A stretch of 64,000 nt of DNA from Desulfurivibrionaceae bacterium (GTDB lineage: Bacteria > Desulfobacterota > Desulfobulbia > Desulfobulbales > SURF-16): contig JBKHJR010000001.1 of assembly GCA_046537975.1 (NCBI GenBank), positions 64,688 to 128,687 on the forward strand. The letters are read 5' to 3'. A program made the translations under genes and the position numbers. Below are positions 710-37,383 of this stretch, one piece after another. Under the pieces are notes generated by a model. That model was not told the origin of the DNA. It searched no databases and saw only the letters and a program-made list of their open reading frames with translations. Numbering within the stretch: position 1 is the first letter of the stretch; every line of letters starts with the position of its first letter.

Positions 710-3046
710 ATGGTTGAACTGCCTATAGATGAGCTGCAATCTGAATTCACCTCCGCCCTGGCCCGGAAGCCGGTGGTGGTGGAGGCTCCGCCGGGAAGCG
801 GCAAGTCCACCAGGCTGCCGGTCTGGTGTGCGGAAAGCGGCCGGGTACTGGTGGTGGAGCCCCGGCGCCTGGCCTGCCGTTCCCTGGCCAGGTTCGTGGC
901 CCGGACCCTGGAGGTCCGGCCGGGGGGAGAAGTGGGTTATGCCGTTCGTTTTGAAGGGGAATACACTTCTGCGAGTCGGATTGTCTTTGTCACTCCGGGC
1001 ATTGCCCTGCGCTGGTACGCCGCTGACAGGTTCAGCGGCTTTGATACCGTGATTCTGGACGAGTTCCATGAGAGACGCTGGGACACCGATCTTCTGGCTG
1101 CTTTGCTGCGCACGGGGAACAGGCGGCTGGTCCTTACCTCCGCCACTGTGGAAGGCCGGCGCCTGGCCGATTATCTGGGAGGATACCGCCTGCAGGCAGA
1201 GGGCAAGCTCTTTGAGGTGGACCTGCACTACAGTGGTTCTCCTACTCTGCCCGGAAGCAGGGATCTGGACAAGCGGGTGGCTGAGACCGTAGTCCGGGCC
1301 CTGGAATACAGCCAGGGAGGGGATGTTTTGGTCTTTCTGCCCGGGAAAGGGGAGATTCAGGCGGCCCGGTCCAGACTGGAGAAGAAGTGTCCCCGAGTGG
1401 AGGTCATTCCCCTGCATGCCTCGGTGGATGCCTCCTCTCAGGACAGGGCCCTGGAGATTTCGGAACATTCCCGGGTCATCCTGGCCACCAACGTGGCTGA
1501 GACTTCCCTTACCCTGCCTGGGGTCAGGGTGGTGGTGGACAGTGGCCTGGAACGGAGGACTCATTACCGGGGGGGCCGCACCGTCCTGGCCCTCTCTGTA
1601 ATCTCTCAGGCGGCTGCGGATCAGCGTACCGGGCGGGCCGGCCGACTGGGGCCGGGAGGCTGCTTTCGGCTCTGGAGCAAAGCGGCCCGGCTTCAATCCT
1701 ATACCCCTCCGGAGGTGGTTCGGGAAGACCCGGCCGAGTTCATCCTGGCTGCAGCGGCCTGCGGCGTCAAAATCCGGGAGCTGGAATACCCCGACCCTAT
1801 TCCCGGACCTGCCCTGGACAAGGCCCTGGCCAGGCTCCAGTCCATGGGGGCGGTAGACAGGGAAGGTGTAATTACCGAGCACGGCCGCAGGCTCTTCCCC
1901 CTCCCCCTTGATTCCCAGCTTGCCCATTTGATTGCGGCCTTCAAGGATGAAAAAGTCCGGGCTGACATGGTTGATCTGGCTGCAGCCCTGAACGCCCAGG
2001 GGTCTCTCCTGGCCCGCAACCAGTCCGAGGAAGGCTGGACTGACCTGGAAGAGTTCGCCCCGGAGGCTTGCGACGCCTGTACCCTGGTCCGGCTGGTCCG
2101 GGGAAGACCTCCGGCTTCGCTCCGTTTGAATCAGGCGGCCTTGAGTGAATCCCGGCGCACCGCCGAGCAGATAAGACAGGCCCTGGGGCTGGCTCCTCCG
2201 GAGAGATCAAGGCCTCCGGCCCGGGACCGGCTGGTTGGCGGCATTATTGAGGCAGTCCCGGATCTGGCCTTTGTCAGGAGACTTAAGCGCAGCTGGGCCC
2301 TGGGTAACGGCAGTGAGGAGGTGGAGATCGGCAAGGGGACCAGGATGCCGGGAAAGGCCCAGGCTGCAGTTGTCCTGGACCGGCACAGTATACCGGGCAA
2401 GGGCACGACCAGGACCTTGACCATCGCCACCTGTCTGGCTCCGGCCGGCCTCCAGGAGCTGGCCCGGGCCGGTCTGGGAGACGTGTCCTGCCGCGAGCCC
2501 AGGCTGGAGAATAACCGGATATCAATTACCGCCGAACGCATCTACGCCGGCCGGATTATCGACTCCTGGACTGAGTATCCCGAAGGGGATCGACTGCGCC
2601 GGGCAGTGGCCGAGCTCATCAGTGGCGGCCGTCTCTGGCCCGAAGCAGGGAAACGGCTCCAGGAGGAGATTGGGGCCTGGAACCTTTATGTGAAGCTGGG
2701 ATACGGCGAGGGCGAAGAGGTTAACCTGCAGGACTGGCTGAGGAACAGGCTTGCGGATATCGGCCTGGAGACCGGGCAGGACCTTGAGGCCCTGGAGGCG
2801 GGCGACCTCGAGTTTGAAGGAATCCCGGAGTGGGAGCGGCCCAAATTCGACCGGCAGTATCCCAGGAATCTAAGTCTGGGTGATATGAAACTCAAGGTGG
2901 AATATGAACCGGGTCGCAGGCGTATTACCCTGGTGCGCCTCTCCGGAACCAGAAAGAATACCCCCCGGCGCTGGGAACTTCCCAATTGGGAGAGCAGCTG
3001 GGAATTGAGATACCGGGACGGCAACCGGGTGGTGCCTGTGACTTAA
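710..3046 (+). CDS. hrpB: ATP-dependent DEAH-box helicase, HrpB-like
   Basis: Walker A APPGSGKST and motif II DEFHERR. TSAT and QRTGRAGR helicase motifs. The 778-aa length fits HrpB. Confidence 0.85.
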   Translation: MVELPIDELQSEFTSALARKPVVVEAPPGSGKSTRLPVWCAESGRVLVVEPRRLACRSLARFVARTLEVRPGGEVGYAVRFEGEYTSASRIVFVTPGIALRWYAADRFSGFDTVILDEFHERRWDTDLLAALLRTGNRRLVLTSATVEGRRLADYLGGYRLQAEGKLFEVDLHYSGSPTLPGSRDLDKRVAETVVRALEYSQGGDVLVFLPGKGEIQAARSRLEKKCPRVEVIPLHASVDASSQDRALEISEHSRVILATNVAETSLTLPGVRVVVDSGLERRTHYRGGRTVLALSVISQAAADQRTGRAGRLGPGGCFRLWSKAARLQSYTPPEVVREDPAEFILAAAACGVKIRELEYPDPIPGPALDKALARLQSMGAVDREGVITEHGRRLFPLPLDSQLAHLIAAFKDEKVRADMVDLAAALNAQGSLLARNQSEEGWTDLEEFAPEACDACTLVRLVRGRPPASLRLNQAALSESRRTAEQIRQALGLAPPERSRPPARDRLVGGIIEAVPDLAFVRRLKRSWALGNGSEEVEIGKGTRMPGKAQAAVVLDRHSIPGKGTTRTLTIATCLAPAGLQELARAGLGDVSCREPRLENNRISITAERIYAGRIIDSWTEYPEGDRLRRAVAELISGGRLWPEAGKRLQEEIGAWNLYVKLGYGEGEEVNLQDWLRNRLADIGLETGQDLEALEAGDLEFEGIPEWERPKFDRQYPRNLSLGDMKLKVEYEPGRRRITLVRLSGTRKNTPRRWELPNWESSWELRYRDGNRVVPVT

Positions 3047-3226
3047 CCGGATTCGCCGTACAATTGATACGGCGCTGATTATAATCCGTTCATACCCATA
3101 GCTTCCCCGCCCTCCCGCCTTAGCGATTATCTTTGTTATCCCTTCCGTCTTGCAAGTCTTTTTTGCCTGAGATATTGTCTTGACAGGAATGGTCTCCCTT
3201 GCCGGCACCATTGTGACAGATCCTTC

Positions 3227-11010: not shown

Positions 11011-11742
11011 ATGCCGGTCCACAGTGATGTAAATGACATATCTTTAGCTGACCATGGTGAAGCCCGCATTGAATGGGCTCTGAAGGAAATGCCTGTCGTC
11101 CGGAACCTGATGGAGAGATTTGCCCGGGAAAAACCTCTGGCCGGGGGGATTGCCATGCGGGCCAAAGGACTTGGCGCTAACGTAGTAGTAACCGAAGTCG
11201 AGCCCCTGCGGGCTCTGGAAGCTGCCATGGACGGCTATCGGGTTATGCCTATGCTGGAAGCAGCGACGATCTCCGATTTCATCATCAGCGCCACGGGGGA
11301 CAAAAATGTGGTTGATAAGGCCCATTTTGAAGTGATGAAGGATGGCTGCGTGGTCGCAAATTCAGGTCATTTCAATGTAGAGATCAATATCCCCGCTTTG
11401 GAGGAAATGGCGATAAGAAAGGAACAGCCCCGGGAATACGTGGATGAATACTACCTGCCTTCGGGGCGCACTGTCCGCCTGTTGGCCAGGGGAAGACTGG
11501 TTAATCTGGCAGCTGCCGAAGGTCATCCCGCCGCGGTAATGGACATGAGTTTCGCCAACCAAGCACTCTGTGCCGAATTCCTCTGCAACAATAAAACGGG
11601 CCTGGAAAACAGGGTGCATCCTGTCCCGGGTCCAATCGACCGGAAGATTGCCGGCTTGAAGCTTGAGGCAATGAAGATCGGCATTGATAAACTGACTGAT
11701 GAGCAGACCAGGTATTTAGCCTCCTGGAAGGAGGGAACCTGA
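11011..11742 (+). pseudogene. ahcY: Adenosylhomocysteinase with a large in-frame internal deletion
   Basis: The N-terminus ([37 protein letters not shown]) joins directly to the late NAD-domain sequence ([20 protein letters not shown]...). Only 243 aa remain versus about 415-475 for the family. The C-terminus is intact ([24 protein letters not shown]...YLASWKEGT). Confidence 0.75.
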
Positions 11743-20854: not shown

Positions 20855-21883
20855 ATGCTTGATATTGATGGTTCCATGGGAGAGGGTGGAGGCCAGGTCC
20901 TGCGCAGTTCTCTTACTCTGGCAGCGATTACCGGCAAGACCTTCCGTATGAAAAATATCAGGGCCGGCCGTTCCAAGCCGGGACTCAGGCCTCAGCATTT
21001 AAGAGCTGTGGAGGCAGCCGCCCAAATCTGCCGGGCCGGGGTGAACGGGGCTGAGATCGGGTCCGGCCAATTGATTTTTCGGCCGGGTCAGGTTGCCGCC
21101 GGGAACTACCATTTTGATATCGGCACAGCCGGGTCAAGTTCCCTGGTCCTGCAGACCATCCTCCTGCCCTTATCCTCTGCCGGACAAAAATCAAGGGTCA
21201 CTGTCACCGGGGGTACTCATGTTCCCTGGAGTCCCTGTTTCGAATATCTGGAGCGCCACTGGTGCGTCTTTTTAGACCGGCTTGGTATTGCCGCAGGTCT
21301 CACCCTGGTGCAGGCCGGTTTTTATCCCAAAGGAGGGGGCTGTGTCCGGGCAGAGATCTATCCGATGGTCGGGCTAAAGCCTCTGACTCTCGTGGAACGG
21401 GGGAGGCTGCTTAAGATTCAGGGTTTTTCCGGCAGCGCCGATCTCCCGGACCATATCGCCGAACGCCAGCGCCGCCGGGCCTTAGACAGACTGGCAGAAA
21501 ACCATCAGGTCAGTAATATCGAGATCAGCCGGATGTCTGCTTTTTCTCCGGGGACAGTCCTTTTTCTTCTGGCTGAATTTGAGAATGGACAATGCTGTTT
21601 TTTTGGGCTGGGGGAGCGGGGCAAGCCTGCGGAGCAGGTAGCTGACGAGGCGGTTGACGCCCTGGAGGATTTTCTGGCCACTGAGGCTGCCATTGATCAC
21701 TACCTGGCTGACCAGCTCCTGTTGCCTTTGGCCCTGGCGGAAGGAACTTCCCGGTTGAGTACCTCAAAGATAACCACCCACCTTCTCACCAACGCCCGGG
21801 TGATCCGGATTTTTCTGCCGGTTGAGATTAAGATCCGGGGCAACTCCGGCAGACCCGGGGTGGTCGAGGTTTACCGGAGCTGA
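20855..21883 (+). CDS. rtcA: RNA 3'-terminal phosphate cyclase
   Basis: IDGSMGEGGGQVLRSSLTLAAITGKTFRMKNIRAGRSKPGLRPQHL carries the RtcA signature, including the His of the adenylylation motif. Confidence 0.9.
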   Translation: MLDIDGSMGEGGGQVLRSSLTLAAITGKTFRMKNIRAGRSKPGLRPQHLRAVEAAAQICRAGVNGAEIGSGQLIFRPGQVAAGNYHFDIGTAGSSSLVLQTILLPLSSAGQKSRVTVTGGTHVPWSPCFEYLERHWCVFLDRLGIAAGLTLVQAGFYPKGGGCVRAEIYPMVGLKPLTLVERGRLLKIQGFSGSADLPDHIAERQRRRALDRLAENHQVSNIEISRMSAFSPGTVLFLLAEFENGQCCFFGLGERGKPAEQVADEAVDALEDFLATEAAIDHYLADQLLLPLALAEGTSRLSTSKITTHLLTNARVIRIFLPVEIKIRGNSGRPGVVEVYRS

Positions 21884-21899
21884 AATAACTCCCCCTGTT

Positions 21900-22394
21900 T
21901 TAATCGCGATGCTCTTTGTAATAACGCACCAGGGAAAGAACATTTTCTGCTCTCAGGCGGCCGATGGCCCCGGAGCTATAGCAGGCCACTTCAATCCGGC
22001 TGTCCGGTTTGAGCAGGAAGCCGGTGGCATGGAAGAATTTTTTTTCCGGCTCATAGAAGCAACCCAGGGTTTTGGTTATGGTAGCGAACTCCAGATTGCA
22101 GGCCACCGGGAAAGTAAGTTCCAGCTTGTCGACTGTCCTGCCGGCTTGGTCCTCAGAATCAATCGAGCCGGCGATCAGCTTGATGTTTTCCTGTTCAAGG
22201 TCGCTCAGGTGTTTTTGGAAGTCAGCCAACTGCTGAGCACAGAAAGGTCACCAGTGACCGCGGTAGATCAGCAGTACTGAATAGCCTCCGGAGAGGGCTT
22301 CGGGTAATTGTTTTTCCCCGTGTTTGACTGTCTGCAGCCTGAGTTCGGGGAGCCTTTCTCCGGTGTCCAGCAGGGGGTCGTTTGATCTGGCCAT
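21900..22394 (-). CDS. Peroxiredoxin-like (AhpC/TSA/redoxin fold) selenoprotein with in-frame UGA (U-x-x-C redox motif)
   Basis: Two listed ORFs (22248-22439 and 21900-22229) are in the same frame and separated only by the TGA at 22248-22250. Read-through gives ...VLLIYRGHW-U-PFCAQQLADFQ..., matching the conserved GHWCPxC motif. GGGAGGA RBS before ATG 22394. Confidence 0.8.
22222..22236 (-). promoter_or_regulatory. Candidate bacterial SECIS hairpin
   Basis: The mRNA reads UGA, then 11 nt, then UCAGC-AGUUG-GCUGA (5-bp stem, G/U-containing apical loop). The spacing matches the usual bacterial SECIS distance. Confidence 0.5.
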
Positions 22395-22464
22395 AATTTC
22401 CTCCCTATGAATGAAGATGTTATAAACAGGTACCTGCATTTACTCTGTAGTAAGGCAGGTGTGA

Positions 22465-23691
22465 TCAGAAAGTGGGCATGGGCATCCGGCCCCATTTGTG
22501 ACGTGGAGCTATATCCTCCACTGCCAGCACTTCCCCGGTGAAGGCGTCTACATCTACCAGTAGGACGGGATGGCGGCGCATACCTACGTCAAAGACATTT
22601 TCTCCTTTAACAATCCTGCCTTTTTCATCTTCTACCCTCACAAAAATAAAGCGTTCTATATCCAGCTCTTTTTCCTTGCGGCCGATAGTCCCTATGAAAT
22701 TGGAAAAGATTTTAAAAAATTTGTGTATTCCTCCCCGGAACTTGTACTTGTGCCACTCCAGGATTTCCGGATAACGTTCAATCATGCTCTCCGGAAATTC
22801 TCTGGCCGCCTCGGTTACCAGGGCCATTAAGAAGAAATCCCGGGGCACGATATAGGCCAGGTTGATACCCGGCTGGGCCTCGAGGAACCTGTCTACTTCC
22901 TGGTGGGAACGCACCAGTTGGTAAAGGTCTTTCAGTTTTTGATCAGGGTGAGGAAAGGCGGGGAGCAGGGTCATCCTTTCCGTGGTGGCAAGGGGAAGGC
23001 TGTTTACCGTATAGGCGCGCAGTCCCAGAGTAATGGCCATGGCCAGGGCCAGGCAGGCCAGAAAGTTTACCGCCATACCCAGGCTCTTGGGTCTGATCCA
23101 GCCGAAAATTTTCTGATAGATCTTTCCGCCCGGTTCACCGGGGAAAAACATCGGTGTCCGGCGTAGATATGCCCGGTAAGAGTCTCCGGCCTCCCGGACC
23201 ATGCGGTTTTCCTCAATCCTGGCCAAAAAATAGTAGACAAAGAGCATGATGATATAAAAGAACAGGATTATAAACCGGGGCCAGTATAAGAGCAGTCCCA
23301 GGCCGGCTATGCCCAGGGCCAGGTATTGGGGATGTCGGTTGAAGGAGTAAATCCAGCCCTGGGCTATCCCGCGCCTGGTAAAGCGATGATAATAAAGGGG
23401 AACTGCCGCGGCCAGGAAGAGAATAAGGCCTATAGGCAGCAGGAGTTGCAAGTAGGAGACGGCGATGATCAGGGGATCAGCCGGGAAGACCATGTGAGGC
23501 AGGAAAAATTCAGCGGTCCAGCTGGTAAGGGGTGAGGAAAACAGGAAGTTGAGGACCGGACCGTAGACCGAGTAGAAGTAGAGAGCGAAAGGGGAGATCA
23601 TGATAAGGATCTCCAGGCCGATCAGGAGATAAATAAGCATGGTCCCGGCCGCAATCCATCTGGTTTTCCGCCTTTTTTCAGTACTCCCCAC
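22465..23691 (-). CDS. Membrane protein with ICMT/PEMT-like methyltransferase core and a ~200-aa soluble C-terminal extension
   Basis: NRHPQYLALGIAGLG...ARIEENRMVREAGDSYRAYLRRTPMFFP resembles the isoprenylcysteine carboxyl methyltransferase family motif region. The C-terminal half was not recognised. Confidence 0.55.
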   Translation of the reverse strand: MGSTEKRRKTRWIAAGTMLIYLLIGLEILIMISPFALYFYSVYGPVLNFLFSSPLTSWTAEFFLPHMVFPADPLIIAVSYLQLLLPIGLILFLAAAVPLYYHRFTRRGIAQGWIYSFNRHPQYLALGIAGLGLLLYWPRFIILFFYIIMLFVYYFLARIEENRMVREAGDSYRAYLRRTPMFFPGEPGGKIYQKIFGWIRPKSLGMAVNFLACLALAMAITLGLRAYTVNSLPLATTERMTLLPAFPHPDQKLKDLYQLVRSHQEVDRFLEAQPGINLAYIVPRDFFLMALVTEAAREFPESMIERYPEILEWHKYKFRGGIHKFFKIFSNFIGTIGRKEKELDIERFIFVRVEDEKGRIVKGENVFDVGMRRHPVLLVDVDAFTGEVLAVEDIAPRHKWGRMPMPTF

Positions 23692-26430: not shown

Positions 26431-26571
26431 ATGATTAATAGTGCGGAAAAAGTCACCCTTCTCTCCATTCTTGCCAATCTACTGCTGGTTTCAGTAAAGG
26501 CTTTCCTGGCCCTGGCTGAGACAATGGCTGAACTGGATATAAAAGCACTGAATAGCAGGAGGGAGAAATGA
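26431..26571 (+). pseudogene. 46-codon remnant resembling the N-terminus of a cation-diffusion-facilitator (CDF) transporter
   Basis: MINSAEKVTLLSILANLLLVSVKAFLALAE resembles the first TM helix of CDF proteins, then ends. Its TGA overlaps the mrp ATG (ATGA). Confidence 0.4.
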
Positions 26572-27014
26572 TTGATGAGGAAAAGGTTAAAGAAAAACTA
26601 AAAGAGCTGAAGCACCCCGGGTTCGGGAAGTCCTTGCTGGAGCTGGGTATGATCCGTGACATTGGCATTGTAGATGGGACGGTTAATCTGACTCTGGCCC
26701 TAAAAAATGACCGTTCTTCTTTTCGCGGAACTCTGGAAAAGAAGATAAAAGATGGTCTTTCTTCGGTTGAAGGTGTGGCGGAGGTCCGGATTGAAGTGAC
26801 CACTCTGAGCCGGGAAGAGATTGAGCGCTTGTTCCCCAAACAGGAATTAAAGGGGATTAAACAGGTGGAGAGAATTATTGCCGTGGCCAGCGGCAAGGGA
26901 GGAGTAGGAAAAACCACAGTGGCGGTTAATCTGGCCCTGGCCCTGCATCAGCAGGGGTTCAGGACGGGGCTCATGGATGCTGATATCTATGGCCCGGCCC
27001 TTCCATATCGATAA
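26568..27014 (+). CDS. Mrp/ApbC/NBP35-family Fe-S carrier ATPase, N-terminal piece (MIP18-like domain plus P-loop)
   Basis: [20 protein letters not shown] and [10 protein letters not shown], followed by TAA at 27012-27014. Confidence 0.75.
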
Positions 27015-27613
27015 TGCTTGATTTGTATAATCAGGCGGATTTCAGCGGTGATGTAGCCAGGCCCCTGGAAAAATACGGGCTCAGGATTATGTCTCTGGGG
27101 ATGTCCGCCAAACAGGATCAGGCCTTTATCTGGCGGGGTCCCTTGGTTTCCAAAATGATCCACAATCTTCTGGATAAAGTGGAATGGGGAAGGCTCGACT
27201 ATCTGGTGGTTGATCTGCCTCCGGGAACCGGAGACCCTTCTATTTCCGTGGCCCACTCCATACCAGACGCAGAAATAGTAATGGTAACCACTCCCCAGAA
27301 GCTCGCCCTGGCTGATGTCAGGAGGGCTGTGAACCTGTTTAACCTATACCATCTTGACATAATCGGTCTGGTGGAGAACATGTCCTACTTTGCCTGCGGT
27401 CACGGAGATAAAGTTTTTGATATCTTTGGTCGCGGAGGGGGGGATGAGTTCAGCCGGGAGAGCGATATTCCCTTACTGGGTTCTATCCCCCTTGATCTCG
27501 CGGTCAGGAAAAGTGAGGATTCAGGCAAGCCCTTGATGGTTGGAGCCCCCGATTCCGAGGCAGGCAGGATCGTTCAGGATATTGCCGGAAAAATCAGTGG
27601 TTGGAGCGATTGA
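27014..27613 (+). CDS. Mrp/ApbC/NBP35-family ATPase, C-terminal piece (different frame, TAATG junction; CxxC motif degenerate)
   Basis: MLDL...IWRGPLVSKMI...YLVVDLPPGTGD...VENMSYFACGHGDKVFDIFG. The family CPxC pair is reduced to a single Cys. Confidence 0.7.
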   Translation: MLDLYNQADFSGDVARPLEKYGLRIMSLGMSAKQDQAFIWRGPLVSKMIHNLLDKVEWGRLDYLVVDLPPGTGDPSISVAHSIPDAEIVMVTTPQKLALADVRRAVNLFNLYHLDIIGLVENMSYFACGHGDKVFDIFGRGGGDEFSRESDIPLLGSIPLDLAVRKSEDSGKPLMVGAPDSEAGRIVQDIAGKISGWSD

Positions 27614-36294: not shown

Positions 36295-37383
36295 ATGAAA
36301 GGTTATTGTGTTTCTGCCTTTCTGCCGTTGCTTATTTTCCTGCTTTCTGCCTCCATGGGTGGATGTGGAACCCCGGATAAAAAGGAGGTTGAAGTGGCTG
36401 CTTCTGATAATCTGAAAAAGGCCACCTTTGCCGGCGGCTGCTTCTGGTGCCTGGAAAAACCCTTTGAGAAGCTGCCCGGGGTTTTATCGGTTACCTCGGG
36501 TTATACCGGCGGCAATACGGAAAATCCCACTTATGACAACTACGCCCGGGGAGGACATATCGAGGCGGTGGAGATAGATTACGATCCCGGGATCATCAGT
36601 TACAGGGAACTGCTGGATGTGTTCTGGCGACAGATAGATCCCACCGATGCCGGGGGGCAGTTCGCAGACCGCGGTCATTCCTATACCACAGCAATCTTCT
36701 ACCACGATTGGGAGCAAAAAAAACAGGCTGAGCAGTCCAGGAAAGAACTGTCAGAGAGTGGTGTCTTTGAGAAGCCCATCGTCACTCCTGTTGTCCCGGC
36801 GGATACTTTTTACAGGGCGGAGGATTACCACCAGGACTATTACCGGAAAAATCCCCTGCGTTATAAGTTCTACCGCTCCGGTTCAGGCCGGGATGAATTT
36901 CTGGATAAGGTGTGGGGTAAAGAGCGCGAGGAGGACCACCGGAAGGTCGCTTCTCTGAGCCGATTGACTCCCATGCAGTATAAGGTTACCCAGGAAGGCG
37001 GCACCGAGCCTGCTTTTGACAATGCCTACTGGGATAATAAACAGCCTGGTATTTATGTGGATATAGTCTCCGGTGAACCTTTATTCAGCTCTCTGGACAA
37101 GTTTGAATCCGGCACCGGCTGGCCCAGTTTCACCAAGCCCCTGGTTCCGGAAAATATAGTGGAGAAGGAGGATCGGAAGCTTTTTACAGTCAGGAGCGAG
37201 GTCCGCAGCCGACACGCTGGCTCACATTTGGGCCATGTTTTTGCTGACGGACCGCCGCCCACCGGTCTGCGTTACTGTATTAATTCGGCTGCCCTGCGCT
37301 TTATCCCGGATGAAGACTTGGTGAAAGAAGGCTACCGGGAGTTTCTGGATCTGTTTGAGGATCAAGAGTCCGGCGGCAGGTAG
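36295..37383 (+). CDS. msrAB: Bifunctional methionine sulfoxide reductase MsrA/MsrB, lipoprotein/secreted
   Basis: Signal peptide with MGGC lipobox. MsrA GGCFWC motif. MsrB GTGWPSF and RYCINSAAL motifs. Confidence 0.9.

Follow-up and report, generated by a model that had tools for sequence, protein, structure and literature searches.

Selenoproteins related to the peroxiredoxins have been described from several sources. An analysis of the Sargasso Sea named the family 'Prx-like protein' (PMC1088965). The Global Ocean Sampling (GOS) analysis named it 'Prx-like 1', assigned it to pfam00578, gave its motif as UxxC (where U is selenocysteine, Sec) and counted 225 Sec and 2,740 Cys sequences; members in its supplement have the form YRGHWUPYC...YSSGPIGR (PMC2398784). 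A 2026 review lists the family with PF00578 and with UxxC and UxxU motifs, as 'predicted with high confidence' and not experimentally verified (PMC13188914). A 'Prx-like thiol:disulfide oxidoreductase' has been reported in Geobacter, Syntrophus and Desulfotalea (PMC1794560) and in deltaproteobacterial symbionts of Olavius (PMC1976440), and for Desulfobulbales such as Desulfotalea psychrophila both the Sec trait and the Prx-like selenoprotein family have been reported (PMC1794560). Here we analyse a gene in a 64,000-nucleotide stretch of contig JBKHJR010000001.1 from a Desulfurivibrionaceae bacterium (the whole stretch is referred to below as the window). It is very probably one intact gene, encoding a cytoplasmic, Sec-containing Prx-like thiol:disulfide oxidoreductase and carrying a minimal hairpin that resembles a selenocysteine insertion sequence (SECIS). 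The original prediction, made from the letters of the window, took replacement of Cys by Sec to be established in thiol oxidoreductases of deltaproteobacteria.

The gene is on the minus strand, from 22394 to 21900, and when read and translated it has 164 codons with one in-frame TGA, at codon 49. The list of open reading frames (ORFs) shows it as two minus-strand ORFs sharing a frame, 22248..22439 and 21900..22229, with a single TGA (22250-22248) between them. The coordinates that the original prediction gave for these ORFs are all correct, and its proposed read-through, YRGHW-[UGA]-PFCAQQL, is reproduced by translation, which gives ...LLIYRGHW-[TGA]-PFCAQQLADFQ... within an 18-kDa product of 164 residues. 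The hairpin that it proposed 11 nt past the UGA, UCAGC-AGUUG-GCUGA, is present at 22236-22222. The start is the ATG at 22394-22392, 5 nt after GGGAGG (22405-22400), and the ATG at 22439 is not the true start; the stop codon is the TAA at 21902-21900. With U written as C, Pfam identifies an AhpC-TSA domain at 1.1e-16 (61.3 bits against a cut-off of 26; residues 12-134) and, as a second match, Redoxin at 9.3e-10. Because the AhpC/TSA match covers residues 12-134, the domain spans the TGA. The features of the locus are as follows.

21900..22394, minus strand: predicted selenoprotein gene, with Sec49 and the motif U49-P-F-C52 (from translation, Pfam and homology to GOS sequences)
22400..22405, minus strand: Shine-Dalgarno sequence GGGAGG, 5 nt before the ATG (from the sequence; the arrangement is common to 25 of 25 distinct Sec loci)
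22248..22250, minus strand: in-frame UGA, codon 49, predicted to be read as Sec (from the aligned codon in relatives and two Logan contigs)
22239..22241, minus strand: UGU encoding Cys52, the putative resolving partner in U-x-x-C (from an invariant alignment column in alignments A3 and A4, and structure alignments)
22220..22238, minus strand: SECIS-like hairpin, within the codons for A-Q-Q-L-A-D-F (from RNAalifold and pairing in the Sec forms)
22236-22232 with 22226-22222, minus strand: core stem of the hairpin, UCAGC/GCUGA, with the loop AGUUG at 22231-22227

The main evidence comes from the codons found at the same position in related genes. Scans of species-representative genomes and of Joint Genome Institute (JGI) metagenomes gave 95 loci. 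The set with the motif comprises 92 loci, two of them Logan contigs that are near-identical to the window. The codon aligned with codon 49 is TGA in 36 of these 92 loci, TGC in 46 and TGT in 10, with no other codon found. The alignment to Cys-containing homologues that had been proposed as a check on the original prediction hence places U on a Cys codon or on another TGA. The Cys homologues are unbroken single proteins of 155-180 aa with the motif W-C-P-[FY]-C, and those that are named belong to the Ktedonobacteria. The named TGA forms come from a metagenome-assembled genome (MAG) of Candidatus Desulfobia, from Desulfobacteraceae and other Thermodesulfobacteriota, and from Tectomicrobia and Nitrospinota. 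The TGA-carrying loci thus represent several phyla, and are 43-70% identical in protein. The closest relative is the Candidatus Desulfobia MAG (L001; Desulfobulbaceae), which is 70% identical and shares its gene order with the window. The two Logan contigs, which derive from separate runs, SRR21542049 and SRR21542051, have the same TGA as the window. It is the restriction to TGA, TGC and TGT across 92 loci, together with a hairpin limited to the TGA forms (described below), that raises recoding above chance.

The sequence on both sides of the TGA has been further analysed, using 25 distinct Sec loci. Mean pairwise differences at codon positions 1, 2 and 3 are 0.42, 0.30 and 0.62 for the 47 codons before the UGA, and 0.34, 0.29 and 0.60 for the 48 codons after it. 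By this measure, the sequence evolves as coding on either side of the TGA. In all 25 loci an AGGAG-type Shine-Dalgarno sequence accompanies an ATG that lies exactly 48 codons ahead of the UGA, and no Shine-Dalgarno sequence is found before the internal TTG at 22229. The coding pattern of substitution and the conserved start answer the concern, raised along with the original prediction, that the upstream 48-codon piece might not be translated.

The locus fits well with the family described above. Its protein has the AhpC/TSA (PF00578) thioredoxin fold, as indicated by Pfam and by the fold of the AlphaFold2 model of a 48%-identical homologue, and it has the U-x-x-C motif, as W-[TGA]-P-F-C at codons 48-52 with the in-frame TGA at the first motif position. 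A BLASTP comparison with the GOS sequence JCVI_READ_1093018630248 ('#Prx-like 1') gives E = 7e-30 over 152 residues, full length and with Sec aligned on Sec, and hhalign of the family profile against the GOS sequence JCVI_READ_286511 gives a probability of 99.9%. The likeness to GOS Prx-like 1 extends to the flanking residues, YRGHW-U-P[FY]C...QL and YSSGPIGR. As in the described family, C-x-x-C homologues are abundant, and members occur in Deltaproteobacteria/Desulfobacterota. There are also differences: identity to the GOS examples is only about 29%, and the sediment/Desulfobacterota subclade to which the window belongs has its own QQLADFQ segment and a hairpin with an AGUUG loop. Membership in the known Prx-like selenoprotein family is therefore established at the level of sequence. 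In NCBIfam, no model reaches its cut-off for the window protein (the best scores 39.6 bits against 211), so that it goes unmarked as a selenoprotein in standard pipelines.

The hairpin was analysed in an alignment (A2) of the 48 nt from the UGA onward in 31 distinct Sec forms, and compared with 53 Cys forms. Stem columns 13-19/25-31 are paired in 86.6% of cells in the Sec forms, and in 30% in the Cys forms. As a control, the 3' partner columns were slid by 1-3 positions, which gave pairing of at most 40.6%. RNAalifold, run unguided, recovered a 5-bp core at columns 15-19/25-29, and the loop is AGUU[G/A] in 30 of the 31 distinct Sec forms. There are compensatory changes. At columns 17/27, A-U becomes G-C in L018, L022 and L053, where CAG changes to CGG (Gln to Arg) and, on the other arm, GCU to GCC; columns 14/30 vary between A-U, G-C and G-U; and columns 15/29 change from U-A to G-C. 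The covariation score was reached by 5 of 500 column shuffles, with 10 cells showing double changes. The element is consequently conserved and covarying in the Sec forms and absent from the Cys forms, with the caveat that the stem overlaps conserved codons. The two outer pairs of the relatives are a G.U pair and a C.C mismatch in the window, and the stem is 5 bp long here compared to 7 bp in many relatives. In the relatives the 19-nt element has a median energy of -6.0 kcal/mol (range -0.4 to -9.6). A lower stem, formed by YUG of the Cys52 codon and CAR of the Gln in 'FQ', was considered and dropped, being fixed by the protein, present in the Cys forms too, and without covariation.

The minimal SECIS of E. 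coli fdhF is reportedly a 17-nt upper stem-loop located 11 nt from the UGA. Like it, the hairpin described here is within the coding region directly 3' of the UGA, has a small G-U apical loop, and has the same 11-nt spacing. It differs from the fdhF element, and from the general bacterial SECIS (bSECIS) model, in having a very short stem (5 bp, and at most 7 in relatives) and no bulged U. The bSECIS model specifies a loop of 3-9 nt, an upper stem of 4-16 bp, 16-37 nt from the UGA to the loop, a G in loop position 1-2 that is usually followed by G or U, and a minimum free energy of -7.5 kcal/mol or lower (PMC13188914). The window hairpin has a 5-nt loop, AGUUG, on a 5-bp stem, with G-U at loop positions 2-3 (A-G-U-U-G). 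The distance from the UGA to the loop is 16 nt (A2 columns 4-19), which is at the lower bound. The original prediction placed this hairpin at the usual position of bacterial SECIS elements; that stands for spacing, loop and stem, but the energy falls short of the -7.5 cut-off.

A number of observations count against the proposal of a Sec-containing protein with a SECIS-like hairpin. The covariation is modest, with double changes in three of the seven pairs, and the stem is written in the codons of the conserved peptide Q-Q-L-A-D, so that part of the stem conservation is at the protein level. It should be added that synonymous sites in the stem are also kept (Leu is encoded by UUR throughout, with no CUN, and Ala mostly by GCU), and that Cys forms encoding Q-Q-L at the same place do not have the hairpin. 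The window hairpin has an energy of -5.9 kcal/mol, weaker than the -7.5 kcal/mol of the bSECIS model, and z = -0.76 for the local 26 nt against shuffled sequence. Over the 66 nt downstream, folding is not more stable than in shuffled controls (z = 0.34). When 50-60 nt are folded freely, the hairpin is out-competed by a pairing of GCUCAGC with GCUGAGC (-10.8 kcal/mol), of which GCUCAGC overlaps the 5' arm of the hairpin and GCUGAGC is about 25 nt downstream (window 22202-22239, minus strand). This pairing is partly present in L001, and is not conserved in the other relatives. A scan with models for SECIS had been suggested as a check, and here the original prediction gained no support: Rfam found no SECIS family anywhere in the window at the gathering threshold, nor in 21800-22500 when matches with E up to 10 were admitted, the lone hit being a chance caiA match at E = 2.2. 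The machinery for Sec is also not seen nearby. ARAGORN found no tRNA in the 64-kb window, and hence no tRNA-Sec; Pfam found no SelA, SelB or SelD among 30 window ORFs; and the related loci had no selA, selB or selD, nor any tRNA-Sec in the 35 of them in which it was sought. Since the hairpin falls short of the energy cut-off, its support is comparative and does not come from the sequence of the window alone. Pairs of in-frame ORFs split by one TGA are moreover frequent, with 75 in the window at loose thresholds, of which only the present one is credible. Given this number and a hairpin that is weak when taken alone, the case rests on the comparison with relatives.

The same relatives appear in the public databases in a different guise. 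An initial search of protein sequences yielded three homologues of full length, together with a series of shorter proteins, each about 108 residues long and beginning at LADFQ. This point lies immediately beyond the active-site motif, and it is where a gene caller that met a stop codon would resume. Entries P0001, P0005-P0009 and P0012 are truncations of this kind, of 108-113 aa. In entries P0002 and P0013-P0021 the Sec position is occupied by Trp ('WWPFC'). The gene behind P0002 has TGA at this codon, and its translation under table 11 does not give the stored protein, which identifies this Trp as an artefact of the gene caller. The Trp entries apparently arose from a caller choosing a code in which TGA is Trp on short contigs. 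The names used in the databases are 'peroxiredoxin', 'peroxiredoxin family protein' and 'redoxin domain-containing protein', and none of the entries is labelled as a selenoprotein. The public databases thus hold the family almost entirely in wrong forms, either truncated or with Trp at the Sec site.

These observations allow the other explanations of the TGA to be weighed. It could be read without selenium, either because the code is reassigned (to Trp or Gly) or because a near-cognate tRNA for Trp or Cys provides leaky suppression. The Trp entries in the databases would fit this, and it is true that we infer the incorporation of selenium rather than observe it. However, the Trp entries are caller artefacts, no homologue has a sense codon for Trp or Gly at the site, Cys codons being the only ones found, and a conserved hairpin with a G-U loop and canonical spacing is a requirement of SelB-dependent decoding. 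In addition, TGA terminates 17 of the 48 long ORFs in the window, which makes it an ordinary stop codon here and rules against reassignment. We therefore regard read-through without Sec as improbable. A mutation of a Cys codon to form a pseudogene, from which only fragments or nothing would be made, is simple in that TGC or TGT becomes TGA by a single base change; the two fragments given by gene callers and the lack of Sec machinery in the window are what it would lead one to expect. A dead gene would not be expected to share its TGA with such diverged loci, to be under purifying selection on both halves, and to retain its start site and a hairpin specific to the TGA forms, all of which are seen here. 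Neither a dN/dS (ratio of nonsynonymous to synonymous substitution rates) of about 1 on both halves nor scattered frameshifts are observed among the TGA relatives, and this explanation is very improbable.

It has also to be considered that the two ORFs are independent functional genes, the first for a peptide of 48 residues and the second for a protein of 109 residues with its start at TTG 22229. The original prediction expected gene callers to produce two fragments, and the automated annotation of a near-identical contig indeed calls exactly these two products; the 109-aa piece even retains a weak AhpC-TSA match. The split would however lie inside one thioredoxin-fold domain, parting the first β strands and the active-site residue from the rest, and would begin the second protein at a TTG that has no Shine-Dalgarno sequence, while the Cys homologues run uninterrupted through the same region. 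Two genes are on this evidence very hard to credit. An error of sequencing or assembly in a normal Cys gene would, like the pseudogene, need one base to change, yet the window and two Logan contigs, assembled from different runs, agree on the TGA, which at least 30 independent relatives have as well, so that such an error is extremely improbable.

To obtain further information on the active site of the Sec-containing protein, it was compared with solved peroxiredoxin structures (6q5v, 2cx3 and 5xbs) using phmmer. These pairwise alignments are at about 20% identity and are indicative only. They align HPGDFTPVC of the peroxiredoxins to YRGHW[U]PFC, so that Sec49 coincides with the conserved Thr, and Cys52 with the peroxidatic Cys. 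The peroxiredoxin Pro is replaced by Arg45 and, at this same low identity, the catalytic Arg (VRAVF) by Ala123. By these alignments, the protein does not have the conserved Pro, Thr and Arg that surround the peroxidatic Cys of a canonical peroxiredoxin. An AlphaFold model is available for the Cys homologue P0127, which is 48% identical to the window protein (pLDDT 88.4, pTM 0.84). In this model helix 50-61 follows directly on strand 38-43 and has the C-x-x-C motif at its N-terminus. Foldseek gives BCP, Prx6 and AhpC peroxiredoxins as its best matches, with TM scores of 0.73-0.80 at 16-22% identity, the matches including 5epf, 3hjp, 4kw6 and 3a2v.

Compared to the canonical peroxiredoxins (BCP/PrxQ, Prx6, AhpC), the fold is thus alike and Cys52 aligns with the peroxidatic Cys, but in the P-x3-T-x2-C...R pattern the Pro, Thr and Arg have become Arg45, Sec49 and Ala123. 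It also differs from the Sec-containing peroxiredoxins, in which Sec replaces the peroxidatic Cys (T-x-x-U), because the Sec of the window protein is three residues earlier. The original prediction identified the UGA site with the first Cys of a WCPxC motif in redoxin-fold proteins; this is correct for the C-x-x-C relatives within the family, but in the true peroxiredoxins the site corresponds to the Thr of T-x-x-C. The modelled arrangement is one of a thioredoxin-type U/C-x-x-C active site on a peroxiredoxin scaffold. Given the replacement of Pro, Thr and Arg and the earlier position of Sec, chemistry of the dithiol (selenol/thiol) oxidoreductase type is more likely than classical peroxidase chemistry assisted by Thr and Arg.

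On the basis of these comparisons, we infer how Sec is inserted at the UGA and SelB bound, and what the redox chemistry and the type of substrate would be. Translation would start at ATG 22394 and the UGA at codon 49 would be decoded as Sec, with SelB, carrying Sec-tRNA(Sec), tethered by the mRNA hairpin that starts 11 nt past the UGA. In the folded protein, Sec49 would occupy the N-terminal end of the first active-site helix, with Cys52 one helical turn further on. The pair could then cycle between selenol/thiol and selenenylsulfide states, as in thiol:disulfide oxidoreductases of the C-x-x-C type.

Not all of the Sec forms have the same hairpin. In a neighbour-joining tree, calculated without bootstrap support, the 31 Sec forms of the Desulfobacterota type make up one clade, and L007 (Tectomicrobia) and L008 (Nitrospinota) form a second Sec clade beside Cys forms. 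Neither of the latter has the AGUUG hairpin (L007:2009-2068, L008:3145-3204); the clade instead has stronger, GC-rich hairpins about 30-34 nt downstream of the UGA. This suggests either an independent conversion from Cys to Sec or turnover of the SECIS. L007 (Candidatus Tectomicrobia MAG JACPCT010000067.1) also has a tandem paralogue at 2533-3057, directly downstream of the first copy at 1865-2365. Two TGAs interrupt the frame of the paralogue, at 2677-2679 and, three codons later, at 2686-2688, giving YRSHW-U-PY-U-LVQL. They are followed by a 7-bp GC-rich hairpin, UUCUCCC-GGGC-GGGAGAA, at a distance of 34 nt from the first UGA and 25 nt from the second. Its W-U-P-Y-U matches the UxxU variant given in the review (PMC13188914) and, judged from the motif, is a potential diselenide active site. 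We tentatively propose, as a possibility that we would put at rather less than even, that the family has solved the insertion of Sec at least twice, using a minimal AGUUR hairpin in the Desulfobacterota and a GC-rich hairpin in the Tectomicrobia/Nitrospinota. If true, the family would offer a compact natural example of Cys being converted to Sec independently and with different SECIS solutions, and default SECIS filters would be under-calling a selenoprotein that is widespread in sediment.

Some related and neighbouring genes are worth recording. Two MAG contigs, L013:385-609 (Desulfatiglandales) and L014:3001-3150 (Deltaproteobacteria), carry no more of the family gene than its C-terminal part, with unrelated or stop-rich sequence ahead of it, and look like gene remnants. 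In the window, a 408-aa multi-pass membrane protein is encoded 70 nt upstream of the predicted selenoprotein gene on the same strand (22465-23691, minus), and is weakly similar to isoprenylcysteine/phospholipid methyltransferases (NCBIfam 1.1e-06; PEMT weak). The gene order of membrane methyltransferase-like protein, Prx-like gene, RtcA and TatC is common only to the Desulfobia MAG L001, and a search for a recurring neighbour gene across 31 Sec loci found none. MsrA is a selenoprotein in some deltaproteobacteria; the window has an MsrA-MsrB fusion at 36295-37383 (plus strand), with a signal-like N-terminus, as an unbroken ORF and in the Cys form.

Two further genes in the window look broken. 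A carrier ATPase for Fe-S clusters of the Mrp/NBP35 type (DUF59 + ParA; 26568-27613, plus strand) is in pieces of 148 aa and 199 aa, which overlap by one base (TAATG 27012-27016). The split, which Logan contig L016 shares, is inside the conserved DADIYGP...ML motif and for that reason resembles a frameshift. The ORF for S-adenosylhomocysteine hydrolase (11011-11742, plus strand; 243 aa) has a normal N-terminus and then jumps into the NAD-binding domain, with some 170 residues of the catalytic domain apparently gone, which suggests an internal deletion or a gene remnant.

A selenoprotein of this type is biologically expected, since Prx-like UxxC thiol oxidoreductases have been known as selenoproteins of deltaproteobacteria for about two decades. 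The kind is already described as a selenoprotein family, and the result is a correction of annotation with little that is new in kind. What is new is a member from a Desulfobulbaceae-like organism, within a sediment/Desulfobacterota subclade that is systematically mis-annotated. The 36 Sec and 56 Cys forms and the RNA downstream of them could serve as a starting point for models of the family and of its SECIS. With the gene correctly marked, a Desulfobulbaceae-like genome gains one selenoprotein, which implies the trait of decoding Sec in this organism.

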